Source: an uncultured Pseudomonadales bacterium (GTDB lineage: Bacteria; Patescibacteriota; Microgenomatia; UBA1400; PJMF01). From it: a stretch of 64,000 bases of DNA. The stretch is taken from positions 23,026 to 87,025 of the forward strand of contig CAZBEW010000003.1 in NCBI GenBank assembly GCA_964491115.1. Direction: 5' to 3'. Of the stretch, positions 4,501-64,000 are shown one piece after another (position 1 is the first letter of the stretch; each line of letters starts with the position of its first letter). The notes below the pieces were generated by a model. That model was not told the DNA's origin and searched no databases. It saw nothing but the letters and a program-made list of their open reading frames with translations. Both the position numbers and the translations under genes were made by a program.

Positions 4501-4688
4501 ATGAAAGTCAAGAAAAAAATGCTTGGCTAAATTTAAACTTAAATAATAAGGCCAAATTGGAATGGATCGAACCAAAAACAGGCAAGATTTTAGAAAAAGG
4601 CACCTTGGAAAAGGGTGAGCAAAGCATTCACATTCCAAATTTTGACTTAGATCTTGCCATGAAAATTACTTATTTAGATAATGAATAG
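1569..4688 (+). CDS. Secreted/anchored fusion protein: PQQ-like beta-propeller repeats plus C-terminal GH5-like glycoside hydrolase domain
   Basis: N-terminal TM/signal; repeated 'G.IYALN...G...W' blades typical of PQQ/BamB-like propellers; C-terminal 'LWELSNEAE' and 'VLVSEFGF' match the two catalytic Glu motifs (NEP / TEFG) of clan GH-A / GH5. Confidence 0.5.
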   Translation: MKKNINKKTSQLFLWLVIVVLLALISVTYLYKKSQNWQFYTDKSIGPNNKFTIFDNLIFDNNTVFFNSQNNNTYALNKNSGQISWIFSAEYYSPFPPTIADDKVFLANFDGNIYCLNENTGKKIWQFSTEEQYQPDTPVLKSSNHDLLFVGSRNGALYALNSVDGSLIWKKQFQELDAAKAFVGGSIHFGSIYLDNDDVYVFNAVENKFFSIAQLDGTINWQIDNLSFSYRSPMFYPDHIIIKQNKYALSIDKKTGSMQKINRSGQENVAWEIFKIEDDKQQLLILDDHALQKIDINFREIEWTANNVDNVLFWQNNTESPSVKTAGEQIIAQTFSRLENQNILLFLDYHTGVITKTQKVDNSINDQLYDDDNIFLSTGTGAVYSINSATSAINWKVIIDGETDSLHLIKNQLLIISLKPSGKISLTYLNKETGEKKWTYTSNFISNKKDIYVKDQSVFVFNQDNTLLNKINISNKKPKDKTIKKINFVYDQDQNTKDPYLKIARANNKLWQLTEKISAFKYRLKNFKNIYSFNFDQEIKNNVLEILITHDENLYQNKFTDLKIEAVLEKIDKQDKIKLNGFYYDHNTWKIRFSAPSPGQYKYQINIKSPFTIKKHSGIIQFDVGKEEIIGTQQGLLLINNKTVFFPLGIQGAFADWNYNGNMMDTMSNSATDKPVSDANEFSYLNIDDYLDLYQTEAKINIFRYGVDHWTMPLWHSIDPKNIILSTNGGKFGDTLIEKLKNKDIKIIMTIFGFYPPYRSYEEISDKNNQQALKFYLDYVIARYSAHIDLWELSNEAEAHELWYEFVINYLKENDPYHHPISTNWETESAKDLDFLSVHWYNPDITDPGHLANQMGYLNQKYNNQEKAVLVSEFGFKNVSYFANSAESMRVLSWLGSFQNMGLIFWTQGQNGIYKNLDNANIYLGPTERVYLRNLQEFLPKNLAIPVEKEMLVIAELHTQAYLLKNQDYILAYLLKLDESQEKNAWLNLNLNNKAKLEWIEPKTGKILEKGTLEKGEQSIHIPNFDLDLAMKITYLDNE

Positions 4689-5810
4689 TTGTTGATGTTA
4701 AAAAATAAAGTAATCATTATCCCGATTGAAAATGCTTGGGATCATAGCGCTGATTTTTTGCGCCAAACAGCCTTTGTTTTGAGTAAACACAATTTGGTTT
4801 ACATTTATGACCACAACAACCATTATTTTTTTGGCAAAAAAAAGCGGAAAAACGTTTACCCAAATTATAAAAACATCATATTTCATCAAGTTAAATATTA
4901 TTTGCCTTTTGAGAGATTTAAAATCATTGATAAGCTCAATCGCTACTTAAGTTTTAAATTATTTTTAGCAAAACATCGTCGTGCAGATAAAATTTTGTGG
5001 ATTTTTTATCCAAATTATTATGATTTTGCACAAGTAAACAGTCGAAAAATGCTAAAAATTTACGATTGTGTTGACTATAGTGAAGATCAGCAAAAAGAAA
5101 ATATTTTAATTAACAGCGTTGATTATTTTTTTGTTAACTCAAAAGCTTTAAAAAACTTGTACGCAAAAAGGAAACTGAACAAGCAAGCAATTTATATTAG
5201 CGCCCAAGGATTTTTCCAACCAAATGATAAAAAAATAAAATCAGTGCCACTTAAAAAAGGCAAAAGCAAAACTGTAATTGGTTATATTGGTGGCCTTAAT
5301 TGTCGCTTGAACTACCCACTACTTGATCAATTAATCAGCAATCACCCGGAATGGCTATTTGTATTTTATGGCCCAGAACAAAAAAATATTGAAAAAGATA
5401 AAATTTATCATACACAAAAATGGATTAAAAAATTAAAAGAACACAAAAATACTCTTTTTGGCTATAGTAATGATCGATATTTCATTTATGGTCTCATAAA
5501 AAGCTTTGATATAGCAATTATTCCTTATAATCTAGACTTGGTTTTCAATTTATATTGTTATCCAATGAAAATTTTTGAATATTTTTATCTGGGGGTGCCA
5601 GTTGTTACTAGTGCTATTCTTGAATTAAAAGAAAAACGTTTTGACGGGCTGATTAACATTGCCAATGATTATAAAAGTTGGGAAAATAGCATAGAAAAAT
5701 GGTTAGAAAACAAAATGCCTGCCAAAAAACAAAGACGACAGAGAGAGTTGGCAATAAACAATAGTTGGCAAAATAAAATTAAAAAAATAGCTAAGGTGAT
5801 AGATTGTTAA
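4689..5810 (+). CDS. Glycosyltransferase (GT1/GT4-like C-terminal domain)
   Basis: 'IGYIGGL..RLNYPLLDQL' and 'PMKIFEYFYLGVPVVTS' resemble the Glycos_transf_1 nucleotide-sugar-binding region (E-x7-E-like region). Confidence 0.45.
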   Translation: MLMLKNKVIIIPIENAWDHSADFLRQTAFVLSKHNLVYIYDHNNHYFFGKKKRKNVYPNYKNIIFHQVKYYLPFERFKIIDKLNRYLSFKLFLAKHRRADKILWIFYPNYYDFAQVNSRKMLKIYDCVDYSEDQQKENILINSVDYFFVNSKALKNLYAKRKLNKQAIYISAQGFFQPNDKKIKSVPLKKGKSKTVIGYIGGLNCRLNYPLLDQLISNHPEWLFVFYGPEQKNIEKDKIYHTQKWIKKLKEHKNTLFGYSNDRYFIYGLIKSFDIAIIPYNLDLVFNLYCYPMKIFEYFYLGVPVVTSAILELKEKRFDGLINIANDYKSWENSIEKWLENKMPAKKQRRQRELAINNSWQNKIKKIAKVIDC

Positions 5811-9871: not shown

Positions 9872-10141
9872 ATGTTGCTTTATTGTCGTTCTGATTTTAT
9901 CTTCCAAAGAAAAATCGATAACACTCTTTGTTTATTAAAAAACAAAGACAAATATATTTATAGATTAAACGAAACAGCTAGTTTTTTGTGGCAAATACTG
10001 GAAAAAGAAGCCTCAAGTGAAGACCTAAGTCAAGCTTTAAGTAAAAAATACAATATCCCCTTGGCACAAGCATCCAACGATGTAGATAATTTTTTAACTT
10101 ATTGGCTGAAAGAAAAATTAATCAAAAAAGTTGTTCAATAA
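9872..10141 (+). CDS. PqqD-family protein (RiPP-recognition-element-like peptide chaperone)
   Basis: 89 aa; 'YIYRLNETASFLWQIL...EDLSQALSKKYNIP...ASNDVDNFLTYWLKEKLI' closely follows the PqqD consensus (Y.LN.t...iW.ll.g...eI...l...y.v....a..Dv..fl..L...gli). Confidence 0.5.
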   Translation: MLLYCRSDFIFQRKIDNTLCLLKNKDKYIYRLNETASFLWQILEKEASSEDLSQALSKKYNIPLAQASNDVDNFLTYWLKEKLIKKVVQ

Positions 10142-10555
10142 TCGCAATCTAAACAACAATCTTTGCCAGACGATAAATAATCGCTTATCAAAATAGCTAA
10201 GTTCACGATTTGTTTTTGATTTAGAAACAGCTAGGCCAACAAAGTCTTTTTTAGCAACTGGATCAAAATCAGCAACACTCAAATTATCACCCATGGTCAC
10301 CAACTTAATGCTAGGCTTGTTTTTTGTATATAGTTTTTTAATAACTCGGTGAATAATTAAATTTTTGTCAAAAGCTCGATAAAAACAAATTATGTCTCCA
10401 GTTTGAATTCTGGCAAACTGAGTTTTCTCCACCCAAACATTATCTCCGATTAAAAACAATGGCGCCATGCTATCACTTTTTATTTTTACTTGAAACATCG
10501 CGCCAATTGGTAAATTTAAAAATAATTTTGCAGAATTCAAAGTTTTTTTATTCAT
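10118..10555 (-). CDS. Signal peptidase I, ER/archaeal SipW-type (S26, Ser-His)
   Basis: Box B 'SDSMAPL', box C 'GDNVWV', box D 'IIHRV' (His in place of Lys), box E 'GDNLSVADFD'; translationally coupled with the ABC ATPase gene. Confidence 0.5.
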   Translation of the reverse strand: MNKKTLNSAKLFLNLPIGAMFQVKIKSDSMAPLFLIGDNVWVEKTQFARIQTGDIICFYRAFDKNLIIHRVIKKLYTKNKPSIKLVTMGDNLSVADFDPVAKKDFVGLAVSKSKTNRELSYFDKRLFIVWQRLLFRLRLLNNFFD

Positions 10556-27647: not shown

Positions 27648-28103
27648 TTGTTGTTGATGAAAAAGAAATTAAGGTCCTTCTTTCTAATTTTATTATTTCT
27701 CATCTCACATTTTTTAAGTTTAAAAACTTTAAATGTCAACTTTTTACCTCAAGTTAATGCACAAAGTCAAAGTCCGAGCCCAAGTCCAGGTGACGAAGAA
27801 GTAGAAATTGATTTAGGAAGTTATTTAAAATTAAGTGGTGGCCAAAAAGTCAGTGATGTTTTTCAAAAACCTAGCGATATGCTTAATTTAGTTATAAAAG
27901 TGGTTTTTGTTGTAGTTGGTTTACTTCTTTTTGCAATGGTGGTCATTGCTGGTTTGTCAATGATTGCTTCAGGCACAACTGATAGTAAAGATAAGGCTAA
28001 AGGCACGATGACTTCAGCTTTAATGGGGTTTATCGTTATTTTTGCTGCCTATTGGATTATGCAAATTATTCAAGTTCTAACTGGAACAGATATTGGCTTT
28101 TAA
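27648..28103 (+). CDS. VirB2/TrbC-like T4SS pilin family protein (paralog 1 of 7)
   Basis: Signal peptide, then two hydrophobic helices flanking a short 'SG.TDSKDKAKG' loop. Confidence 0.55.
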   Translation: MLLMKKKLRSFFLILLFLISHFLSLKTLNVNFLPQVNAQSQSPSPSPGDEEVEIDLGSYLKLSGGQKVSDVFQKPSDMLNLVIKVVFVVVGLLLFAMVVIAGLSMIASGTTDSKDKAKGTMTSALMGFIVIFAAYWIMQIIQVLTGTDIGF

Positions 28104-28132
28104 AAAGGAGCTTAGTATAATGAGGGTTTGAA

Positions 28133-28573
28133 ATGAAAAAAAATATCTTAATTTTACTCATAACAATTTTTTCTTTATTCCTAATTACAAACAAACCTGT
28201 TCTGGCCCAGAGCCCAGCGCCAATTGTGAGCGAAGATCCTTTTGGGGCTATCGAAGCTCCTCCGGGAGTGGACAAGTTTAATCAACAAGCTGGAGCAAGC
28301 GGCATTGGTCTTATTATTTTTTTCTCCAACTTAATTAAATTTCTCGCTGTTATTGCTGGTTTATGGACAATGTTAAACTTTATTTCTGCTGGTTTTACGT
28401 ATATCACCTCATCTGATTCAGGATCTATCAGTAAAATTGGTACAAAACTAACGCTAAGCGTAGTTGGCTTGGCCATAATTGTCGCTTCTTACACCATAGC
28501 AGCCGTTCTTGGATTAATACTCTTTGGAGATGCTACTTTTATTATCAATCCAAAAATACCAAGTCCTATTTAA
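28133..28573 (+). CDS. VirB2/TrbC-like pilin (paralog 2)
   Basis: Signal peptide 'ILLITIFSLFLITNKPVLAQ'; two TM hairpin around 'ISAGFTYITSSDSGSISKIGTKL'. Confidence 0.55.
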   Translation: MKKNILILLITIFSLFLITNKPVLAQSPAPIVSEDPFGAIEAPPGVDKFNQQAGASGIGLIIFFSNLIKFLAVIAGLWTMLNFISAGFTYITSSDSGSISKIGTKLTLSVVGLAIIVASYTIAAVLGLILFGDATFIINPKIPSPI

Positions 28574-28592
28574 TTAATAATAATTAACAATT

Positions 28593-29030
28593 ATGACAAA
28601 AATCACCAAACTCATAGCTGACGTAGATATTGGCTCCATCCAACCTGTTACTGATGTGCGTCAACCCGCAAATTTGCAAGAAACCACAGTTTTATCTACT
28701 CTGGAAACCTGGATCAGCGACATTATTGGCGTGATCACCATTTTAGCCACCTTATTCTTTATTGTTTATGCCTTTGTAGCTGCCTTTAATTGGATTACAG
28801 CTGCGGGAGATAAAAGTAAAATTGAACAAGCTAGAAATCGTTTGGTAATGAGCACGCTTGGCTTAATTCTCATTGTCGCTACCCATGCGATTATTGGTTT
28901 AATCGGAGGCATCATTGGTTTAGAACTATTAAACCCAGGAAACATGATTCGACAAATTCTTCCAAACGCAGGTTCGCTAACACCAACCATAATGCCGCCA
29001 GTAATTACAATTTCGCCAGCTCCTTTTTAA
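28593..29030 (+). CDS. VirB2/TrbC-like pilin (paralog 3)
   Basis: 'NWITAAGDKSKIEQARNRLVMSTLGLILIV' motif between two TM segments. Confidence 0.6.
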   Translation: MTKITKLIADVDIGSIQPVTDVRQPANLQETTVLSTLETWISDIIGVITILATLFFIVYAFVAAFNWITAAGDKSKIEQARNRLVMSTLGLILIVATHAIIGLIGGIIGLELLNPGNMIRQILPNAGSLTPTIMPPVITISPAPF

Positions 29031-29039
29031 TAAAAAATT

Positions 29040-29474
29040 ATGAAAAAAAATAAACAATTAACCTTGAGCCAAAAACTAATTGCCAGCTTTAATTTGTTTC
29101 TAATTAGTTTTTTTTACAGCGCAAAATCCGTTTCTGCTCAAATTACTAATCCTGTGACAGGCAATTTGGGAGTTAGCGATCCAGACGCTCCAAGTGGTAG
29201 TAGATTTATTCAATATGTTGTTTATTTGTGGCGAGCTTCTGTTACCCTCGGCGCTTTAGCAGTCATCGTTTTTTTTCTACTAGGAGCTTTTACTTGGATT
29301 ACTGCTGGAGGAGATAAAAACAAAATTGAACAAGCCCGCAATCAAATTATGAACTCTATTGTTGGCTTGGTATTATTAGTTAGCTCTTTTGTTTTACTTA
29401 GTTTTCTAAGTAAATTATTATTTGCTGGAGAATTTGATATATTTCAATTAAGTCTTCCAGGAACAAACAATTAG
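29040..29474 (+). CDS. VirB2/TrbC-like pilin (paralog 4)
   Basis: 'TWITAGGDKNKIEQARNQIMNSIVGLVLLV'. Confidence 0.6.
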   Translation: MKKNKQLTLSQKLIASFNLFLISFFYSAKSVSAQITNPVTGNLGVSDPDAPSGSRFIQYVVYLWRASVTLGALAVIVFFLLGAFTWITAGGDKNKIEQARNQIMNSIVGLVLLVSSFVLLSFLSKLLFAGEFDIFQLSLPGTNN

Positions 29475-29492
29475 CGTTAAAAAGCAAAAAAT

Positions 29493-29852
29493 ATGAATAA
29501 ACTTATACTTACAGCACAAGCCAGTGAAGGAACCGTTCTAAATATAGCTGAAGAAGCTCAAAGACAAGGTCTACTCGGTGCCGAAAACGCCAATACTGAA
29601 GATGGGGGTTTTGGTCTTTGGCTCAGCAATCTTTTGAAAGTAGCCATGACTCTTGGGGCCGTGGTTTGTTTAGCCTTTATCATCTTGGGAGCGGTTCAAT
29701 GGATTACTTCAGGTGGCGATAAAAGCAAAATTGAAGAAGCACGTAATAAAATTACTAATGCTGTTATTGGTCTGATTGTTTTAGCAGCCACTATGGCTCT
29801 TTTTAATCTGGTGGCTAGTTTTCTTGGTATTGATGTAATAAGAATCATCTAG
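29493..29852 (+). CDS. VirB2/TrbC-like pilin (paralog 5)
   Basis: 'QWITSGGDKSKIEEARNKITNAVIGLIVLAA'. Confidence 0.6.
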   Translation: MNKLILTAQASEGTVLNIAEEAQRQGLLGAENANTEDGGFGLWLSNLLKVAMTLGAVVCLAFIILGAVQWITSGGDKSKIEEARNKITNAVIGLIVLAATMALFNLVASFLGIDVIRII

Positions 29853-29857
29853 ATTTT

Positions 29858-29903
29858 TTTGCTAAATACTAATAAACTTGATATAATAAAAGTAGAAAAG
29901 TAT
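29858..29903 (+). promoter_or_regulatory. Candidate promoter (TTGCTA ... TATAAT) and AAAGGAG ribosome-binding site for pilin paralog 6
   Basis: TATAAT at about 29883-29888; TTGCTA 19 nt upstream (spacing slightly long); AAAGGAG at 29897-29903. Confidence 0.25.
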
Positions 29904-29916
29904 AAAAGGAGAAATT

Positions 29917-30321
29917 ATGAAATCTATAAAAAAAATTGCTTTAGGCTCCGCTAGCGCGTTGGGCAGCATGTTTTTAACAGCAAAAACTGTCTTGGCGGCA
30001 TCAATCTCAGATATTGAGGTCAGTCCAGGAACTGGTTATGCCACTGATTTTGGCAAGATGTTTAGCTCTGTCTTAAACATTGTGATGTTAATTGCTGCAG
30101 TTTTAGTATTTGCCTTCCTTATTTTCGGTGGTATTCAATGGATTACTTCCGGTGGTGATAAAAGCAAAGCTGAAGAGGCACGTAATAAAATTACATCAGC
30201 CGTTATTGGTTTAATCATTGTTGCTGCTTCTTACGCGGTAATTAACCTAGTGGTTAACTTCCTCGGATTTTCTGACTTCAACAGTGTTTTCAAAAACGTA
30301 ACCCCTATTAGCGGTAATTAA
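29917..30321 (+). CDS. VirB2/TrbC-like pilin (paralog 6)
   Basis: 'QWITSGGDKSKAEEARNKITSAVIGLIIVAA'; AAAGGAG RBS 7 nt upstream. Confidence 0.6.
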   Translation: MKSIKKIALGSASALGSMFLTAKTVLAASISDIEVSPGTGYATDFGKMFSSVLNIVMLIAAVLVFAFLIFGGIQWITSGGDKSKAEEARNKITSAVIGLIIVAASYAVINLVVNFLGFSDFNSVFKNVTPISGN

Positions 30322-30331
30322 ATAAATCACT

Positions 30332-30378
30332 ATCCCCTCTCTTTTCATGAAAACTTGGAATGAGAGGGGATTATTGTT
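30332..30378 (+). terminator. Hairpin (ATCCCCTCTC ... GAGAGGGGAT) followed by a T-rich run
   Basis: 10-bp perfect inverted repeat at 30332-30341 / 30362-30371 after the paralog-6 stop, then 'tattgttat'. Confidence 0.4.
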
Positions 30379-30390
30379 ATAATTAATATC

Positions 30391-30801
30391 ATGAATAGAG
30401 CAATCTCCCTATTTCCCATTGTTAAACAGGTCCAGGCCCAGACTAAAGAGTGGCAAACTATTAGTGAATACTGTGTTATTAATGATGTCGCTACCGTCCA
30501 AGGTGTGGGTTGTTTATTAGCTAATGTTTTGTCAGTTGCCCTGCGCTTACTTGGAATTACCGGCTTTATCATGATTGTTTATGCAGCTTTTAACCTATTG
30601 ATGTCGGCAGGAAATAGTCAAAAAATGGAAGAATCAAAAAAGACCATCACTTTTGCAATTATTGGAATTATTTTAGCTTTATCAGCCTTTATTATTATTA
30701 ATTTAATTGCAAATTTCACTGGAGTTAGTCTGGTGAAGGAATTTACCATCCCCAGTTCAGAAAAAAATTGGGTTTCACCTACGCCCACTCCCATTCCCTA
30801 A
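30391..30801 (+). CDS. VirB2/TrbC-like pilin (paralog 7, divergent)
   Basis: 'NLLMSAGNSQKMEESKKTITFAIIGIILALSAF' motif; true start uncertain. Confidence 0.5.
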   Translation: MNRAISLFPIVKQVQAQTKEWQTISEYCVINDVATVQGVGCLLANVLSVALRLLGITGFIMIVYAAFNLLMSAGNSQKMEESKKTITFAIIGIILALSAFIIINLIANFTGVSLVKEFTIPSSEKNWVSPTPTPIP

Positions 30802-30813
30802 AAATTTGAAATT

Positions 30814-31542
30814 TTATTGACCAAAGCGTCTTTGTCTTGAAGAATAGTCTGCGAGGGCTTTGGCAAATTGTTTTTCATCAAAATCTGGCATCAAAGTCGG
30901 GCAAAAATACAATTCGCTATAAACTGCTTGCCAAGGCAAATACCCAGACAAACGCTGCTCTCCACCCGGCCTAATTATTAGTTCTGGATCTGGTAATTTA
31001 ATGTCTTGCTGAGTATCTAAATATTTTTCTAGGAGCTCAACGCTTATTTGATGACTCTTTAAGTTTTTTTCTTCAGCAATTAAACGCTGAACCGCTCTAA
31101 TTATTTCGTCACGACCTCCGTAATTTAGTGCAAAAGTGACCACTAATTTGTGGTTATTTGCCGTTTCTTTTTTCCAATCTTCTACTCCACTTCTAATATC
31201 TTCAGGAAAATGACTTAAATCTCCAATGCTGTGCACCCTCACACCTTTTTTGTGCAAGCGTTCGGCTGCCGTCGCAAAAGTTTCACGAAATAGATTCATA
31301 ATTCCATCCACTTCTTCTTGATCACGCTGCCAATTTTCGGTACTAAAAGCCCAGAGCGTTAAAAATTTAATGCCAACTTGAATTGAGTAATCTGCTAAAC
31401 GCTCAATGGTTTCTTCTGCTGTTTTACGATGACCTTGTATAATCGCCAAGCCGCGTTTTTTTGCCCAGCGACGATTGCCATCCATGATAATTGCTACGTG
31501 TTGAGGGACTGCTACTTGCTGAGAAATTGTGCTTTTTTTCAT
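30814..31542 (-). CDS. uppS: Undecaprenyl diphosphate synthase
   Basis: 'HVAIIMDGNRRWAKKRGL', 'LTLWAFSTENWQR', 'RPGGEQRLSGYLPWQ'. Confidence 0.9.
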   Translation of the reverse strand: MKKSTISQQVAVPQHVAIIMDGNRRWAKKRGLAIIQGHRKTAEETIERLADYSIQVGIKFLTLWAFSTENWQRDQEEVDGIMNLFRETFATAAERLHKKGVRVHSIGDLSHFPEDIRSGVEDWKKETANNHKLVVTFALNYGGRDEIIRAVQRLIAEEKNLKSHQISVELLEKYLDTQQDIKLPDPELIIRPGGEQRLSGYLPWQAVYSELYFCPTLMPDFDEKQFAKALADYSSRQRRFGQ

Positions 31543-31546
31543 AATT

Positions 31547-32206
31547 TTAATTAGTTAAATTACTCGATTCTTCTAAAAATTGTTCAATAGCTTGAATAAT
31601 TTTGGGCTCCTGTAAAAACAGTTTAAACCAGGGCGTCAATATTAAACCAGGAATTTGCTGATTTTCTTTTAATTCTGACCAACTAAGCCAACGCACTTCA
31701 CTCACTTCTGCTGGATTCAATCCTATTGTTAAATCTTTAAGTCCTGACTCAGCAACTTGTTGCTCATCTAAAAAGAGAGCAAAAATATGATCTATTTCTC
31801 GCTCACTGTACTGATGATTACAAGCAACATGATACTTAAATACAAATATTTCTTTTAACTGTCGCTGAATATTTTTGGGGAAATTAATCCCCAACTCTTG
31901 ACGCAAGCGTCTCCATAAGCATTGTTGATGAGTCTCACCCTCAGCCACATTGCCACAGACTGTATTAGCCCATTGCTCTGCACCAACTATTTTTTGTTGA
32001 CTGCGCTTTTGCATTAACAATTCAACATCACCCTGTTGATTTTTTCTGAATAAAAATAAAGAAATTGCTTGATGAAGCAATGCTTCTCCCAAGTGAGCCT
32101 CATACTTGTCGGCACTAGCAATAATTTCATCATTGTCATTAACCAAATTCACTCGATCATAATTCACTGCGTTCTTTGTCATCTTTAGTATTTTAACAGA
32201 CAACAA
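31547..32206 (-). CDS. idi: Isopentenyl-diphosphate delta-isomerase, type 1 (Nudix fold)
   Basis: Aligns by eye with E. coli Idi: 'LHQAISLFLF' (LHLAFSSWLF), 'WANTVCGNV' (WTNSVCGHP), 'WRRLRQELGI' (RRCRYELGV), 'TPWFKLFL' (SPWMVM). Confidence 0.75.
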   Translation of the reverse strand: MLSVKILKMTKNAVNYDRVNLVNDNDEIIASADKYEAHLGEALLHQAISLFLFRKNQQGDVELLMQKRSQQKIVGAEQWANTVCGNVAEGETHQQCLWRRLRQELGINFPKNIQRQLKEIFVFKYHVACNHQYSEREIDHIFALFLDEQQVAESGLKDLTIGLNPAEVSEVRWLSWSELKENQQIPGLILTPWFKLFLQEPKIIQAIEQFLEESSNLTN

Positions 32207-44963: not shown

Positions 44964-47216
44964 TTATTCTGAGCCTTTGTAGTCGTCAATAGAGTAGCCG
45001 TATAGCTGTCTGGTTTTTGGTTGAGCTTCTTGTTCAAGCTCTTGAGTGTTGTCAAAATTATTGTTTAAATCGCTGTTTTGGCTACTTGCTGTCTCGTTTT
45101 GAATGTTTGTTTCTTCGTTTTGTCCACTCGCCACCTCATTTTCAGCAACTGTTTGTTGTTTTTGTTCAGCATCAAAAATATTTTTGATTTGCGGTAGAGT
45201 GTTGCTTTGACGTAATCTGATTTCTGCTTGACGCTCGGCATTTTCTAGTAAATCAGTCTCTATTTTAACCTTTTCTCCTTGCCAGGGAATTTTTTCAGGT
45301 CTGCTAAATTCTCCAACTTTTTCCTCGCTTTTCTCAATCGTGCTTTCTTGTTCTAGTCGACGACGTCTAAGCTCACGCTCTGCCTCAGCCTGTTTCTTTT
45401 TGGCTAAAATTTCTTCAGGATCTGTTGTGATTGCTCTATCTTCTTTTTCTGACGCAATAACTCGTAGTGCCACGTGATTTTGGCCAGCAAAAAAGATGCC
45501 TTCGCCAACATCTGAAGTCACCAACAGCTGTCTTTCTCCCTCAGACAAATAAAAAGTTTGCGCTAAAAGAGGAATCGAGGAGGTTGATTGCTTCATTAGA
45601 AACTGAATAGAAGAGTTAGAAACGATTGCTCGCCCATAATCGTTGCGCAAAAAGTCTTCAACGTCTTGAGTAATGGTGGTAATACCAAGGAAATATTTAC
45701 GAGCGCGTTTAACCATCGAATATACAAAAGCAGAGCTATCTTGATGCATCATGAAGTACCAGGCTTCATCAATCACTAAAATTCGTTTTTTAAGATCTTT
45801 TTTCACTTTTGTCCAAATGAAATCAAGAATCACGTACATGGCAATTGGTCGCATTTCTTCTTCCATTTCTCTGACGCTAAAAACAGTGAAGGGGGAGCGA
45901 ATGTCAATGTTTGAAGCTTTATCAAAAATTCCCCGAAAAGACCCCGTAATAAATTTTTCTAAACGTGCTGACAAATCATCGCTTTCATCTTGTTCCATGC
46001 CGACTAAGGCCTTGTATAGGTCTTCCATTAGGGGTGGAGTATTAGTTTGAGTGTTGGGATCGGGAGTAATGCCCTTGGCTTTATAGCTGGCAATGATTGC
46101 TCGATCAAGAATTGCTTCTTGTTGAGGAGTCATTTCTCCCAACATCACTTTTAGCAGACCATGCAAGGACAAAATCTTTTGACCAAGCTCATTTTCTCCC
46201 TCTTCGTACAAATTAGATAGGTCAAATGGATTAATTTTTGCCTTAGAACCAAAAGTAAAATTAATATATTCTCCGCCAACCATATTACATAGCTCTTCAT
46301 ATTCATGTTCTGGATCTAGCACGATAATTTCCGTGTCAAACATGAGCTGGCGCAAAATTTCTAGTTTTACTGTGTAGGATTTTCCTGCACCAGATTTAGC
46401 AAAAATAACCATGTTGGCATTTTCCATTTTAAAACGATCAAAAATTACCAAAGAATCGTTGTGTTCGTTGATGCCATAAACAATGCCAGTTTCCATGGTT
46501 AATTCTGAGGAAGTAAAGGGAAAGGTTGTGGCTAACGAAGTGGTGTCCATGTTTCTAGTGATTAACAGGCGATCGGTGCCCATTGGCAAGGTGTTTTTGA
46601 AGCCCTCATCCATTTGTAAAGCGGTTTTTTTTGAAACAATTAATAAAGAGCCTAAAGAAGATTGAATGGCTTTGGTGATTTTGTCTAATTGCTCTCTAGT
46701 TTCGCTTTTAATAGTGACGTATAAGCTAAATTGGAAAAATCTTTCCGAGCCAGCCGCCAGTTGCTCTCGCATGACTCGCGCGTCATTTAATTTAATTTCA
46801 GTGTTAATATTACTAATTTTACCGTTGCGGAGATCTGAGGTTATTTCTGCCTCCATTTCAGTGATTTTTCTTTTCAAATCATCTAAAATTTTGCTGGTGT
46901 CAGACGGAAAAACAAACATCGAAATATTAGCTTGAGTGGGAAAATTAATTAGCGGTGACAACCAGTTGGCTGGGACAGTACGCGGATAACCAGCCACAAA
47001 AATAGTTCTTGTATATGTTGAATTAATTTTTTGATAGGTGAAATCCACCTCTATTGCTTCTGGGGCAATAATATCTTGAATAGTCACTAGACCACGAGAA
47101 AAATCTTTCAATCTTTCTTGAGTATATTGCTCTGCATCAATCTTTTTTTTCTCAACAGGATCAGTGACTGTTTCTTTCTTTTTAAAAAATGGTAGGTTTA
47201 GGTTTAGTAATGACAT
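44964..47216 (-). CDS. VirB4/TrbE/CagE-family T4SS ATPase with a 130-aa acidic/Gln-rich C-terminal tail
   Basis: Walker A 'AKSGAGKSYTVK', Walker B 'ILVIDEAWYF'; N-terminal 'GYPRTVPANWLSPL' VirB4 N-domain. Confidence 0.8.
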   Translation of the reverse strand: MSLLNLNLPFFKKKETVTDPVEKKKIDAEQYTQERLKDFSRGLVTIQDIIAPEAIEVDFTYQKINSTYTRTIFVAGYPRTVPANWLSPLINFPTQANISMFVFPSDTSKILDDLKRKITEMEAEITSDLRNGKISNINTEIKLNDARVMREQLAAGSERFFQFSLYVTIKSETREQLDKITKAIQSSLGSLLIVSKKTALQMDEGFKNTLPMGTDRLLITRNMDTTSLATTFPFTSSELTMETGIVYGINEHNDSLVIFDRFKMENANMVIFAKSGAGKSYTVKLEILRQLMFDTEIIVLDPEHEYEELCNMVGGEYINFTFGSKAKINPFDLSNLYEEGENELGQKILSLHGLLKVMLGEMTPQQEAILDRAIIASYKAKGITPDPNTQTNTPPLMEDLYKALVGMEQDESDDLSARLEKFITGSFRGIFDKASNIDIRSPFTVFSVREMEEEMRPIAMYVILDFIWTKVKKDLKKRILVIDEAWYFMMHQDSSAFVYSMVKRARKYFLGITTITQDVEDFLRNDYGRAIVSNSSIQFLMKQSTSSIPLLAQTFYLSEGERQLLVTSDVGEGIFFAGQNHVALRVIASEKEDRAITTDPEEILAKKKQAEAERELRRRRLEQESTIEKSEEKVGEFSRPEKIPWQGEKVKIETDLLENAERQAEIRLRQSNTLPQIKNIFDAEQKQQTVAENEVASGQNEETNIQNETASSQNSDLNNNFDNTQELEQEAQPKTRQLYGYSIDDYKGSE

Positions 47217-48380: not shown

Positions 48381-49397
48381 CTAATTAGCAATAATTTTAA
48401 TTTCTGGTACTATCCTTCCGGTTAATCTAATAGAGATGGGGTCAAAGTTTAAATCCTTTGCTTCGGTTTTAATGAGGTATTCGCCGTTAGGAAGGGCAGT
48501 TTTAATGGCAAATTCACCCTCAATGTTGCTTTTGCTAATGCGTAAAGCCTGGTCGTCATTGCTGGCAAAAACTTCAATTAAGGCATTGCTTACTGGCTCG
48601 TTTTCTTGATTAAAAACAAGACCAAACAGTTGGTTTGCTAACATGCTCTCTCTTTCCGACTGCTTTTCTTCATCAGCTTGATCTTCTTTGTTGGTATTTT
48701 TTAGAGGGTAGTTTTCTTGGACCTTTTTTGCCTCGGTTTTTTCCTGTATTTCTTGTTTAGCTGGCAATGGATCGCTTTCTTGGGCGTATTGTACTTGTTG
48801 TTGTTCCTGAATTTGCTCAAGGCTTTTAATTTTTCTCACTCTTGTTTTTAAATGAGGTTTGTCCACCCTAATATCTTTTTGAACAGAAATATTTTCTGCC
48901 TTAATTTCTACTTGACTAAAATTGGCCAGCAAATCTTCTGCTCTTTGATTGTAATGTAAATCCCATTGGTCAAGATCTTCGTTGGCACTAGGAACGCTTT
49001 TTAGATATTCTTGAACGCGCTGTTTTCTAGCTGGCGAGTAATTTACCTCTGGAGTAATATCTAAATTTTGATTTTGATCCGCTTGGTAGTTAAAAAAATC
49101 GGGGACCTTGGGTGCTTTTTTCCAAAAAAATTTAGTTGGTTTCCATATGTTTTTGAAAAAAGTTACGATCCAAAAATCTAAGGGTCTTTCTTCAACCGGA
49201 ACAAAAGCAATCATGACAGCCAAAATGATAATAAAAATAAACAGTGGCCACTTTACTATGGCAATTAAGTTACTTTTGAAAACAATAAAAGCAATGATAG
49301 CGCCAGCAGCCAATTCGCCAAACTGCTTTAGAGTCATGCTGCCGATTAGGTGAAACTTGTAGCCAGTTATATCTTGGGGAATAGAGTGTTGTATCAT
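48381..49397 (-). CDS. PrgI/VirB3-like two-TM protein fused to a C-terminal carboxypeptidase-regulatory-like beta-sandwich domain
   Basis: N-terminal 'SIPQDITGYKFHLIGSMTLKQFGELAAGAIIAFIVF ... PLDFWIVTFFKNIWKP' matches the PrgI-family pattern; C-terminal 'NALIEVFASNDDQALRISKSNIEGEFAIKTALPNGEYLIKTEAKDLNFDP'. Confidence 0.45.
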   Translation of the reverse strand: MIQHSIPQDITGYKFHLIGSMTLKQFGELAAGAIIAFIVFKSNLIAIVKWPLFIFIIILAVMIAFVPVEERPLDFWIVTFFKNIWKPTKFFWKKAPKVPDFFNYQADQNQNLDITPEVNYSPARKQRVQEYLKSVPSANEDLDQWDLHYNQRAEDLLANFSQVEIKAENISVQKDIRVDKPHLKTRVRKIKSLEQIQEQQQVQYAQESDPLPAKQEIQEKTEAKKVQENYPLKNTNKEDQADEEKQSERESMLANQLFGLVFNQENEPVSNALIEVFASNDDQALRISKSNIEGEFAIKTALPNGEYLIKTEAKDLNFDPISIRLTGRIVPEIKIIAN

Positions 49398-61748: not shown

Positions 61749-62330
61749 TTAAACTCCTAAAATTGCTATTCCAAAAACTACTTCGATTAATTGGATTATC
61801 CAGTAAGAAGCAAAAAGAATGATAAATCCGATAATAGCTGTAGTAATGATTTGTTTGCCTTCATCCATATTTTTGGAATTAGTAGCACCAGTGAGCATTT
61901 TAACACCAGCTAAAACTAACATGCCAAATAGAATCATCCCAGCTATAGGGAAAGCATATTTCAAAACTTCGCTAATAATTCCGCCTGGAGTTGATAATTT
62001 TTCAGCTTTAGTCGAAAAAAGTTTAAGTGGGTTGAGGTTGTCTAATAGCTCTTGATCTACTGGAGGAATGGGTACGGCTAGAGTGGGAGTAGCTGTTGGA
62101 GCAGCTGTTGGTGGTGGAGAAGCATGGCACCCCGTTGTAGAATCGTACCAGCCGCAACACCATATAGGAGGATTCCAACCAACGTGGACTTTATTTGCAC
62201 AATTACATGCACCATAGGCAAAATATTCTCCGCATTCAGCTGGATCAAGTAGTCCACCTTTTACTGGTTTGGCTGGAAAGGCAAATATTAGAGAAAAAGC
62301 AATTAATAAATAAAGGATTGTTTTTTTCAT
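61749..62330 (-). CDS. Pilin-fusion protein: signal peptide, 8-Cys ectodomain, Pro/Thr/Ala linker, C-terminal VirB2-like two-TM pilin module
   Basis: 'CGEYFAYGACNCANKVHVGWNPPIWCCGWYDSTTGCH'; 'PPPTAAPTATPTLAVP'; C-terminal 'GMILFGMLVLAGVKMLTGATNSKNMDEGKQIITTAIIGFIILFASYWII'. Confidence 0.5.
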   Translation of the reverse strand: MKKTILYLLIAFSLIFAFPAKPVKGGLLDPAECGEYFAYGACNCANKVHVGWNPPIWCCGWYDSTTGCHASPPPTAAPTATPTLAVPIPPVDQELLDNLNPLKLFSTKAEKLSTPGGIISEVLKYAFPIAGMILFGMLVLAGVKMLTGATNSKNMDEGKQIITTAIIGFIILFASYWIIQLIEVVFGIAILGV

Positions 62331-62333
62331 TTC

Positions 62334-63281
62334 TTATGGTTGTCCAAAACCAGGTATTTTAATAACTGAAACGCCAATAAATTGCAATATGGTCACAGAG
62401 AAAATGATAAATAAGAGTCCTACAATGGCTGAGGTAATGATCTCTTTTGCATCTTGAGTTTTTTTAGGGTCACCTTTAGAGGTAGAAAGCATAAAGGCGC
62501 CAACTAAAATCATAACTAAAACAATGCCTCCACCTAGTATAAGACCGATTCTCATTATTGTATAAATAATGCCTTCAGAACTGCTTGGTATACAGCCAAT
62601 TGCTGTCCAAATTCCTCCCGAATTAAAGCAGGTTATACAACGACTAAAAGCATTGGTGTTGCTGGAACTAATTTGTGTCAAGCAAAGATCAAATTCAGTG
62701 CCTTCAGCATCTGTTGGCTCTGAACTACAACTATTAGGATTACAGCTATTGGACACTATGAAAGGGGCGCTTTGTTTTATATCACATAATATACTTTGGT
62801 TATAAATAATCTTGCGATAAGATACGCCAACAAGATATCTTCCCTCTTCTTCATCGATCATTAGGGAAGCGGAAGCCGTATTATTTATAATATCTGCTGT
62901 CGCTTCCGAGGAAGTCGCAACAGCCCTATCACCAACCATTTTCCTTAGTGTAAACCTAACTTTTTCTGGAATTATTGAGCTATCATTTTTAGGATCGTTC
63001 CAAGTGAGATTCTCAATTGTAATATTTACGTCTGAGCCAGATTGAATGCAACTTGGGGGGTAGTAACATTTTTTTCCATCTCTTTCTTGATAAATTTGGA
63101 AACCTGATGCTGTAAAAGTTGCATCTAAGACTGATGGAGGATTAAGACCACCAGTAAACCACAAACACTGTCCTGGTACAAAGTCATCAGCAAAAACCGA
63201 AAATTGGCTCTTTTGAAATTTTGTAACAAGTGAGGTTAATAGTAGGAGTGATAACAATATTCTCAATATTTTATTTTTCAC
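62334..63281 (-). CDS. Pilin-fusion protein: signal peptide, about 230-aa Cys-containing ectodomain, C-terminal VirB2-like pilin module
   Basis: C-terminal 'IGLILGGGIVLVMILVGAFMLSTSKGDPKKTQDAKEIITSAIVGLLFIIFSVTIL' has the same architecture as the 27.6-30.8 kb paralogs. Confidence 0.5.
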   Translation of the reverse strand: MKNKILRILLSLLLLTSLVTKFQKSQFSVFADDFVPGQCLWFTGGLNPPSVLDATFTASGFQIYQERDGKKCYYPPSCIQSGSDVNITIENLTWNDPKNDSSIIPEKVRFTLRKMVGDRAVATSSEATADIINNTASASLMIDEEEGRYLVGVSYRKIIYNQSILCDIKQSAPFIVSNSCNPNSCSSEPTDAEGTEFDLCLTQISSSNTNAFSRCITCFNSGGIWTAIGCIPSSSEGIIYTIMRIGLILGGGIVLVMILVGAFMLSTSKGDPKKTQDAKEIITSAIVGLLFIIFSVTILQFIGVSVIKIPGFGQP

Positions 63282-63345
63282 CCCTCTATTTTAACTCAAA
63301 AATCTCAATCATAAAAGCAATAGAAAAATTTGTTACAATGAAAAG

Positions 63346-64000
63346 GTGTTAAAGAAGTTATCATCAGCGCTAATTATCCTATTGGTTTTAGTACTGTCGG
63401 GAGTATTAATGCCAACAGCGTTGACTTTTTTGCGTCAACAGCCTCAAGTTTTGGCAATCAGCGATGTCGACAAGCTGCAAGAAGAAATCGACGAACTACA
63501 ACACTTGAAAGAACTATCTGAATCAGCCACCGCTCCTCTAGAAACAGAAGTGGCCAATCTTGAGTCGCGCATTCGTTCAGCTCAGGCTGGAATTAATAGT
63601 GCCAAACAGCAAGCGGTTGAATTAGCTACTAGTATTGAGCAAAGAGAGGAAGACTTAGCTTATCATTATCAACTTTTTGCTAATCGAATTGCCGAAAGTT
63701 ATAGACGGATACGTAGTTTTAATCCTTTAAGCCTAATTTTTTCAAGTCCAAATGCTACTATTTTTAGTAAAAATTTAGTTTATCAAGATTCAGCCAAGGC
63801 TCAAGATGATCGACTAATTCGCTCAATTTCTGGAGAATTAAAGCAATTGGCTGATGATAAGCAAGAATTAGAAGCGACTCAAGTTCATTTAACTGCTCTG
63901 CAAAGTCAACTTGACGGGCAAGCAGATTTTTTTAAGGGGGAAATCGCTAAAGCCAAACAATATCAACAAGAATTGGGTAGTCAAATAGCTGAATTATCGG
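63346..64000 (+). CDS. Partial CDS (runs off window): N-terminal TM plus long coiled coil, EnvC / M23-peptidase-activator-like N-terminus
   Basis: Open frame from GTG 63346 to window end with no stop: 'VLKKLSSALIILLVLVLSGVLMP...LQEEIDELQHLKELSES...' heptad-rich; start codon uncertain. Confidence 0.3.
   Translation, partial: MLKKLSSALIILLVLVLSGVLMPTALTFLRQQPQVLAISDVDKLQEEIDELQHLKELSESATAPLETEVANLESRIRSAQAGINSAKQQAVELATSIEQREEDLAYHYQLFANRIAESYRRIRSFNPLSLIFSSPNATIFSKNLVYQDSAKAQDDRLIRSISGELKQLADDKQELEATQVHLTALQSQLDGQADFFKGEIAKAKQYQQELGSQIAELS

Follow-up and report, generated by a model that had tools for sequence, protein, structure and literature searches.

Architecture of the B315-A193 gene pair

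Genes B315 and A193 lie in a 64,000-nucleotide (nt) stretch of contig CAZBEW010000003.1 (hereafter the window) from an uncultured, ultrasmall bacterium of the Patescibacteriota, and each codes for a predicted exported protein in which a folded, Cys-rich N-terminal head is joined to a C-terminal helical hairpin of Pfam family PF18895 (T4SS_pilin). Both are on the minus strand, correspond exactly to the two open reading frames (ORFs) of the original prediction, and are separated by only 3 nt between the B315 stop and the A193 ATG (Table 1). They had been placed at the distal end of a type IV secretion system (T4SS)-like locus, but in the direction of transcription the pair opens a minus-strand run; promoter and terminator scans gave results no better than shuffled sequence.

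Hydropathy plots of both proteins show a signal-peptide-like hydrophobic segment at the N terminus and two long hydrophobic helices at the C terminus, and the C-terminal regions match PF18895 above the Pfam gathering cutoff of 26.6 bits (A193, 38.9 bits, E = 9e-10; B315, 29.1 bits, E = 1e-6). AlphaFold2 (AF2) models contain folded heads in both proteins, with a mean predicted local distance difference test (pLDDT) score of 86.9 for B315 (59 homologs as input) and 80.0 for A193. Pfam, hydropathy, and modelling thus agree that both genes code for the predicted fusion, in which a folded, Cys-rich, exported head is attached to a pilin-type hairpin, although several of the proposed details differ, as described below. 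A database protein (P0001) is 100% identical to B315, the same 315-amino-acid (aa) protein being present in independent assemblies, and A193 is 93% identical to NLG06714.1 from Candidatus Pacebacteria; these entries derive from metagenome-assembled genomes of "Candidatus Pacebacteria/Paceibacterota" and are labelled as hypothetical proteins.

The signal peptide of B315 includes an Ala (A31) that is invariant across 59 homologs, and its sequence reads as one for Sec export with cleavage between VFA and DD. The exported part is about 200 aa long (residues 33 to 232) and has 10 Cys, rather than forming a domain of about 230 aa as first estimated. Eleven strands are modelled in residues 38 to 170 and a twelfth at residues 174 to 177 (pLDDT, 83 to 98), forming a β-sandwich for which Foldseek searches of the PDB returned only generic immunoglobulin (Ig)-like, FN3, C2, macroglobulin, and TapA sandwiches (best E = 2e-4); the modelled fold would fit a surface or binding module without narrowing the function further. 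A juxtamembrane unit follows in which C200, C215, C218, C230, W225, T226, A227, and G229, together with the motif GIWTAxGCIP, are invariant in the 59 homologs. Zinc binding by this C-x14-C-x2-C-x11-C unit was weighed against disulfide staples and seems the less likely, because the CxxC sits inside a modelled helix. It is this structured 4-Cys unit that joins the B315 head to the hairpin, and the Pro/Thr/Ala linker originally assigned to both proteins is present in A193 (residues 70 to 90) but not in B315. The hairpin helices are 33 and 36 residues long in the B315 model and 33 and 35 in that of A193, and are joined by short charged loops that can be read from the sequence (KGDPKKTQDAKE in B315 and NSKNMDEGKQ in A193); the topology read off for both has the two ends outside and the short charged loop inside. 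B-type proteins end just past the second helix in a near-invariant I-P-G-F-G-[EQ] tail (window positions 62337 to 62360, and the homolog alignment), which A-type proteins lack and which may be a processing or docking motif.

The sequence of A193 likewise reads as one for Sec export, with cleavage of its signal peptide probably between VKG and G. Its head contains six Cys (C33, C42, C44, C58, C59, and C68) in 36 aa, not eight in about 45 aa as originally counted, and is modelled as a small, β-rich structure (residues 30 to 70; pLDDT, 90 to 94); a pattern search found the 6-Cys motif only this once in the window. The Pro/Thr/Ala-rich stalk is disordered in the model, three short helices stand between it and the helical hairpin, and the pilin core has nearly invariant columns in an alignment of 41 homologs. 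The exported heads are rich in Cys, the numbers are always even, and these residues are most simply read as putative disulfide staples.

Table 1. Coordinates of the gene pair, its parts, and associated features (window positions unless stated otherwise)
Feature	Position	Strand	Description and basis
Gene B315	62334..63281	-	315 aa, 10 Cys, GTG start; signal peptide, Ig-like β-sandwich head, 4-Cys juxtamembrane unit, PF18895 hairpin, IPGFG tail
B315 signal peptide, residues 1-32	63186..63281	-	MKNKILRILLSLLLLTSLVTKFQKSQFSVFA followed by DD; hydrophobic residues 4-23; modelled helix 2-24; A-x-A-like VFA site read from sequence
B315 variable β-sandwich ectodomain, residues 33-178	62748..63185	-	Modelled strands; 23% mean pairwise identity among 59 homologs
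B315 juxtamembrane 4-Cys unit, residues 196-232	62586..62696	-	C200, C215-x2-C218, C230; GIWTAxGCIP; 55% mean identity; two short helices and a hairpin (AF2)
B315 pilin-type helical hairpin, residues 233-307	62361..62585	-	PF18895 match, residues 236-302; helices 235-267 and 272-307 (AF2); 75% mean pairwise identity
Gene A193	61749..62330	-	193 aa, 6 Cys, ATG start; signal peptide, one 6-Cys head unit, Pro/Thr/Ala stalk, PF18895 hairpin
A193 head, residues 26-69	62124..62255	-	6-Cys unit C-G..C-x-C..C-C-G-W..C; Cys positions; small β structure (AF2)
A193 Pro/Thr/Ala-rich stalk, residues 70-92	62055..62123	-	Begins ASPPPTAAPTATPTLAVPIPP; read from sequence; pLDDT below 50 at residues 80-85
A193 conserved pilin core, residues 93-193	61752..62054	-	DxLNPLK, LSTPGGIIS; PF18895 match, residues 114-180; helices 115-147 and 152-186 (AF2)
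Array of seven stand-alone PF18895 pilin paralogs	27648..30801	+	119-151 aa; ORFs; six of seven above Pfam cutoff; alignment with A193 and B315
VirB4-like T4SS ATPase	44964..47216	-	Pfam P-loop_TraG, 90.3 bits, and AAA_10
PrgI-family (VirB3-like) T4SS membrane protein	48381..49397	-	Pfam PrgI, 28.3 bits (cutoff, 27)
Large ORF, 1,108 aa	49827..53153	-	No Pfam family
Large ORF, 863 aa	53224..55815	+	No Pfam family
Large ORF, 579 aa	56146..57885	-	No Pfam family
Secreted protein of unknown family, 942 aa	58891..61719	-	29 nt downstream of A193; syntenic in relatives
Divergent upstream gene, partial	63346..64000	+	Signal/coiled-coil N terminus of SpoIID-domain protein; open frame, start codon uncertain; 94% colinear with L007 gene called SpoIID
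SpoIID-domain gene in relatives	L001 8210-9931; L003 8124-9803; L004 8044-9756; L005 1841-3553; L007 7240-8922		

Relationship to the stand-alone pilins

The C-terminal modules of A193 and B315 align with each other and with an array of seven stand-alone paralogs that is also located in the window, the paralogs having 13 to 33% identity to A193. With PF18895 common to all of them, the equivalence of the modules proposed from the sequence alone is borne out. The seven stand-alone paralogs are presumed to be major or shaft pilins. B315 and A193 share with PF18895 proteins the hidden Markov model score, a signal peptide plus two helices, and a T4SS-linked setting, but depart from the family's description as small stand-alone proteins (approximately 100 to 150 aa) in carrying about 200 aa (B315) and 65 aa (A193) of additional exported sequence.

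PF18895-like proteins form a very large family. An exhaustive search of representatives with the window's nine pilin proteins as queries yielded 91,078 at E ≤ 0.001, a number that speaks to family size only, the best 150 being mostly multimodule proteins with additive scores that give no unbiased fraction of N-terminal extensions. Many PF18895 proteins encoded outside the window are single polypeptides of 2 to 17 tandem pilin modules (P0191, P0195, P0199, and P0242), such as P0191 (552 aa) with six modules and P0195 (1,775 aa) with 17 matched stretches, and in some of them further modules are added to an ectodomain or a B-type module. These could be either cleaved polyproteins or true multihairpin proteins, and extended and tandem PF18895 proteins are, to judge from their sequences, common in the candidate phyla radiation (CPR), a point on which the literature consulted is silent.

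Distribution and pairing across genomes

The same fusion, which the original prediction had suggested looking for in other CPR genomes, is found in many of them. There are 302 database homologs of B315 (type B) and 63 of A193 (type A), nearly all with PF18895 and many from the same contigs, and a B relative is present in 183 species-level genomes (one genome per species scanned), all of them CPR of the Pacebacteria, Woesebacteria, or Microgenomates kind. Pairing was scored in 79 retained loci with a B gene, each locus having one B and one A. An A-type gene directly follows B in 74 of these, with a gap of no more than 60 nt in 73, and three of the five loci without an A gene after B have fewer than 520 nt of contig remaining. 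The N-terminal extension of B is present in every one of the 79 loci, with the conserved core beginning at residue 90 to 398 (median, 275). A-type proteins are headless in 19 of the 74 loci, and their N-terminal Cys counts cluster at 0, 6, 12, and 18, reflecting none to three or more copies of the unit C-G..C-x-C..C-C-G-[WFY]..C.

This conservation bears directly on the concern that the fusions are artefacts of gene calling or assembly in which a small secreted protein has been joined to a pilin gene, an explanation that reflects the general risk of metagenome-assembled sequence and that we reject on conservation as having a negligible chance of being correct. The ORFs are uninterrupted in the window, the identical 315-aa protein is present in independent assemblies, the same architecture recurs in hundreds of homologs and 79 species-level genomes, and AF2 models B315 as a single chain with high confidence. 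Nor are the fusions due to chance, because the two architectures recur in the 302 and 63 database homologs, respectively, and the pair in 74 of the 79 species-level genomes. Fusions of this type were initially described as unusual, which is true in comparison with the characterized VirB2, TraA, and TrbC pilins but not within Microgenomatia-type CPR, where the B head is universal and fusion appears to be the rule, the system being paired, modular, and lineage wide as judged from the genomes compared. We found no description of a paired, head-bearing pilin-module system in the T4SS literature searched, and no mention of heads fused to PF18895 hairpins in the literature on patescibacterial T4SS pilins (PMC12102498, PMC10633639, and PMC12857230).

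The 6-Cys unit pattern was found in 32 of 1,857 ORFs in the loci of 80 other genomes, all 32 being pilin-core ORFs, and a search with a three-unit 6-Cys head, the sensitivity of which is limited by the word index, added only four pilins and did not place the unit in any other kind of protein. A unit of 36 aa with six Cys is of the size of knottin or defensin-like peptides, is present in one to three or more tandem copies, and is connected with the pilin core through a disordered stalk accessible to proteases, raising the question of whether the small heads are released effectors or antimicrobial-peptide-like toxins that are cut from pilin-tethered precursors at the Pro/Thr/Ala stalk. However, Pfam and Foldseek show no likeness to any toxin family, neither a processing site nor a protease is evident, the B-type heads are large β-sandwiches on a structured unit without a stalk, and the 6-Cys unit never occurs outside pilin-core ORFs among the 1,857; release of the heads as toxins is thus a very remote prospect.

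Conserved hairpins and variable, mobile heads

Conservation within B-type proteins rises steeply toward the membrane, with mean pairwise identities among 59 homologs of 23% for the β-sandwich, 55% for the 4-Cys unit, and 75% for the hairpin, and the cores of A-type proteins are conserved to a degree similar to that of the B hairpins. The array pilins have the opposite pattern and share only about 25% identity with one another, both here and in a published survey (PMC12102498). The exported heads of the B- and A-type proteins vary in fold, copy number, and size (about 45 to 370 aa), and they are exchanged between scaffolds. Nearly identical heads are carried by P0053 (B scaffold) and P0128 (A scaffold), two proteins whose hairpins belong to different types.

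A replacement of the A head is also apparent in comparison with a closely related contig, L005, which matches the window with 100% identity over 1,663 nt containing the A stalk, hairpin, and 942-aa gene, and with 96% identity across B and the SpoIID gene. In place of the 205 nt coding for the signal peptide and head of A193 (window positions 62126 to 62330), L005 has unrelated sequence (L005 positions 4581 to 4878), which begins with an 80% copy of the 5′ end of B including the ribosome-binding region and signal peptide (window positions 63255 to 63320). This arrangement suggests recombination between the 5′ ends of the B and A genes. No DNA repeats between the B and A genes that could drive recombination are present in the window.

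The T4SS locus and neighboring genes

The genes for a VirB4-like ATPase and a PrgI-family (VirB3-like) protein are 12 to 17 kb from the pair and on the same strand, and gene order is conserved among relatives, in agreement with the predicted T4SS association. The wider region also carries dnaA, dnaN, and yidC (identified by Pfam), a setting that fits the published placement of T4SS loci in Patescibacteria close to the origin of replication (PMC12102498). Pfam scans of B315, A193, and the neighboring proteins contained no VirB5-family match, and VirB6 homologs are reported to be scarce in Microgenomatia (PMC12102498).

Four large ORFs without a Pfam family (942, 579, 863, and 1,108 aa) occupy the interval between the pair and the VirB4 region. 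The first of these, immediately downstream of A193, has no Pfam or PDB relative that we could find, but a gene coding for 922 to 965 aa is in the same place in L001, L004, L006, L007, and L008, and 24 of the 80 genome loci have a detectable counterpart. L001, L004, L006, and L007 all keep the order B, A, ∼940 aa, ∼290 aa (reverse), ∼560 aa, ∼870 aa (reverse), ∼1,100 aa, and the four large ORFs likely represent uncharacterized parts or substrates of the system. Upstream of B, a divergently transcribed gene coding for a coiled-coil and SpoIID-domain protein is present in every locus with Pfam labels (L001 and L003 to L007) and is detectable by blastp in 64 of 80 loci. A SpoIID-type (peptidoglycan-remodelling) protein could be a wall-opening partner and VirB1 analogue, since VirB1 is reported to be missing from most CPR T4SS loci.

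The relative positions of the pair and the pilin array vary among genomes. In L035, L038, L056, L065, and L088, a run of stand-alone pilin genes begins immediately after the pair. In the window, the seven-gene array adjoins uppS (a prenyltransferase gene) and a NUDIX gene (30814 to 32206), whereas in the distant genome L003 (10001 to 12900) it is the pair that adjoins uppS and NUDIX, which suggests that pair and array were once contiguous and were later separated in the lineage of the window. Elsewhere in the window, a 145-aa Peptidase_S24-like protein (S24/S26 clan; 10118 to 10555, minus strand) is encoded adjacent to an ATP-binding cassette (ABC) transporter; S26-type peptidases mature the TrbC pilin in RP4.

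The composition of the locus has some bearing on whether B and A are instead structural elements of the T4SS that reside in the membrane, such as a base or stalk replacing missing VirB5/VirB6-type components, with heads that span or organize the cell wall zone, perhaps together with the SpoIID-type wall hydrolase. Such a role would accord with hairpins that are far more conserved than the array pilins, as for docking onto conserved machinery, as well as with the presence of exactly one B and one A gene per locus, the conserved SpoIID-domain gene beside the pair, and the reported scarcity of VirB6. It is nonetheless hard to square a fixed internal role with heads of differing fold, size, and copy number that are exchanged from one scaffold or strain to another, and headless A-type proteins in 19 of 74 genomes and the frequent location of the pair at the head of the pilin array itself also count against it; we consider a structural role the main alternative, though a rather unlikely one.

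A proposed role as specialized minor pilins

We propose, with evenly balanced confidence, that B315 and A193 are a co-transcribed, conserved pair of specialized pilin-module proteins of a patescibacterial T4SS, and that they are minor pilins that present interchangeable host-binding heads on a T4SS pilus or at its tip. In this model, B and A would be exported through Sec by way of cleavable signal peptides and held in the membrane by the PF18895 hairpin, with the N and C termini outside, the short charged loop inside, and a folded extracellular head on the N terminus. The B head would be an Ig-like β-sandwich stapled to the hairpin by the 4-Cys unit, and the A193 head a single 6-Cys knot on a Pro/Thr/Ala stalk. 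The two proteins would most likely be low-copy-number subunits that enter a filament of the seven stand-alone paralogs under the control of the VirB4-type machine, and they are probably incorporated first and hence located at the filament tip, a position that would put the heads at the surface of the epibiont's host cell. The heads could then function as exchangeable specificity cassettes, with the conserved hairpins keeping compatibility with the assembly machine.

The relationship to classical conjugative pilins is central to this proposal. The diderm pilins VirB2 (T-pilus), TrbC (RP4), and TraA (F) resemble B and A in having a signal peptide, two hydrophobic helices, a short basic loop, both termini outside, and VirB4-linked genes, but they lack a folded N-terminal domain and have no detectable sequence homology. 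The original designation of the hairpins as VirB2-like thus holds for their architecture and for the Pfam family name but not for their sequences, and it is an architectural and contextual statement, because sequence homology to classical VirB2 is not detectable and the structural match is not significant. Only paralog 3 of the array matches PF04956 (E = 0.016), and it does so below the cutoff. VirB2 and TrbC are cyclized head to tail, a process that would be ruled out for B and A by their large N-terminal heads, and to our knowledge only short epitopes have been grafted onto F-pilin.

Several observations weigh against this proposal. Alignment with hhalign of a CPR pilin-module profile and five annotated VirB2/TrbC proteins gave a probability of only 5.8%, and PDB sequence matches to the pilin-module profile include no pilin, only chance membrane-protein matches. 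The Foldseek match to the archaeal Aeropyrum pernix conjugation pilus (8dfu) has a template modelling score of 0.64 on the target and a root mean square deviation of 2.8 Å over 70 columns but is not significant (E = 4.6), and other helical hairpins match in like manner. The β-sandwich fold of B315 is a generic one that points to no ligand, and the window ORFs scanned include no Dsb/VKOR-type oxidoreductase, leaving extracellular disulfide formation unsupported by local gene content. The 75%-conserved hairpin could equally fit a fixed position in a membrane machine. By rough geometry, a VirB2-type helical lattice would have no room for a ∼20-kDa head on each of its subunits, so that B, at least, could not be a major subunit. 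The contig L005 is short and metagenomic and could combine two strains as a chimera, which would weaken the claim of recombination; even in that case, however, the A head differs in a very closely related strain. Finally, no CPR T4SS pilus has been observed, and the literature treats the pilus as a possibility (PMC12857230).

The lack of detectable homology to VirB2 also lends some weight to PF18895 being a mere two-helix membrane anchor, with B and A as ordinary cell surface proteins (in binding, sensing, or wall association) whose only link to the T4SS is genomic neighborhood. The PF18895-like family, besides being very large, contains proteins with 2 to 17 tandem modules and varied added domains, a feature unusual for polymerizing pilins, and the L003 pair is beside uppS, NUDIX, and mevalonate pathway genes without the large ORFs that come next in the window. 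Opposing this are the association with VirB4/PrgI loci and with pilin arrays, which is consistent from genome to genome (see also PMC12102498), and the finding that T4SS-cluster pilin genes are essential in Southlakia epibionticum (PMC10633639). In addition, a head on a tether of no more than about 20 to 45 residues would, we infer, barely clear the wall and surface layer. A role simply as membrane anchors is therefore quite improbable.

Comparison with known systems and implications

The closest known relatives of B and A are the patescibacterial VirB2-like pilin arrays, including the essential cluster of S. epibionticum ML1, which belong to the same PF18895 family and have the same signal peptide plus two helices and the same T4SS- and dnaA-proximal setting; 441 such arrays have been described (PMC12102498). 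The pilins of the described arrays are approximately 100 to 150 aa, without extra domains, and hypervariable, whereas B and A are single-copy proteins with conserved hairpins and exported heads of 45 to 370 aa. The proposed role as a minor component of a T4SS pilus tip touching the target cell is shared with the VirB5-type tip proteins (VirB5, TraC of pKM101, and CagL), but these are soluble, helical, and unrelated to pilin, whereas the candidate adhesins B and A are built on a pilin module. Gram-positive conjugation adhesins of the PrgB type, which are LPXTG anchored, are like the proposed B and A in serving a monoderm T4SS that needs a surface protein for contact with its partner. However, these are large, sortase-anchored wall proteins, unlike B and A, which have a pilin-hairpin anchor and no LPXTG, and none has been found in CPR (PMC12102498).

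A conserved pilin domain combined with a variable binding or capping domain, at low copy number and often at the tip, is a design well known in FimH and PapG of chaperone-usher pili and in the minor pilins CofB, TcpB, and GspK of type IV pili and type II secretion systems. B and A have the same two-domain design, in that a variable head is set against a conserved hairpin, each locus has a single B and a single A, and heads swap; these other systems are unrelated to them in fold and in assembly (by donor-strand exchange or through a type IVa N-terminal helix), and the parallel is one of analogy only. A bolder and more tentative suggestion, to which we give somewhat less than even credence, would make B and A the first two-domain adhesin-pilins to occur naturally in a conjugative-type (VirB2-like) pilus, where they would form a conserved two-protein tip or cap whose recombining head cassettes (Ig-like sandwiches, and 6-Cys knots in one to three or more copies) set the host range of Microgenomatia-type epibionts.

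In the one system tested, epibiotic growth requires the patescibacterial T4SS together with its pilins, and a survey of 3,035 CPR genomes reported pilin arrays but "no adhesins" (PMC12102498); if correct, the interpretation of B and A as adhesin-pilins would fill this gap. The finding that a VirB2-like hairpin can carry a large folded N-terminal domain also bears on how such filaments are assembled. Paired, conserved anchors with fast-changing, swappable heads are concrete, clonable candidates for the host recognition determinant, and would make the host range of these epibionts testable.

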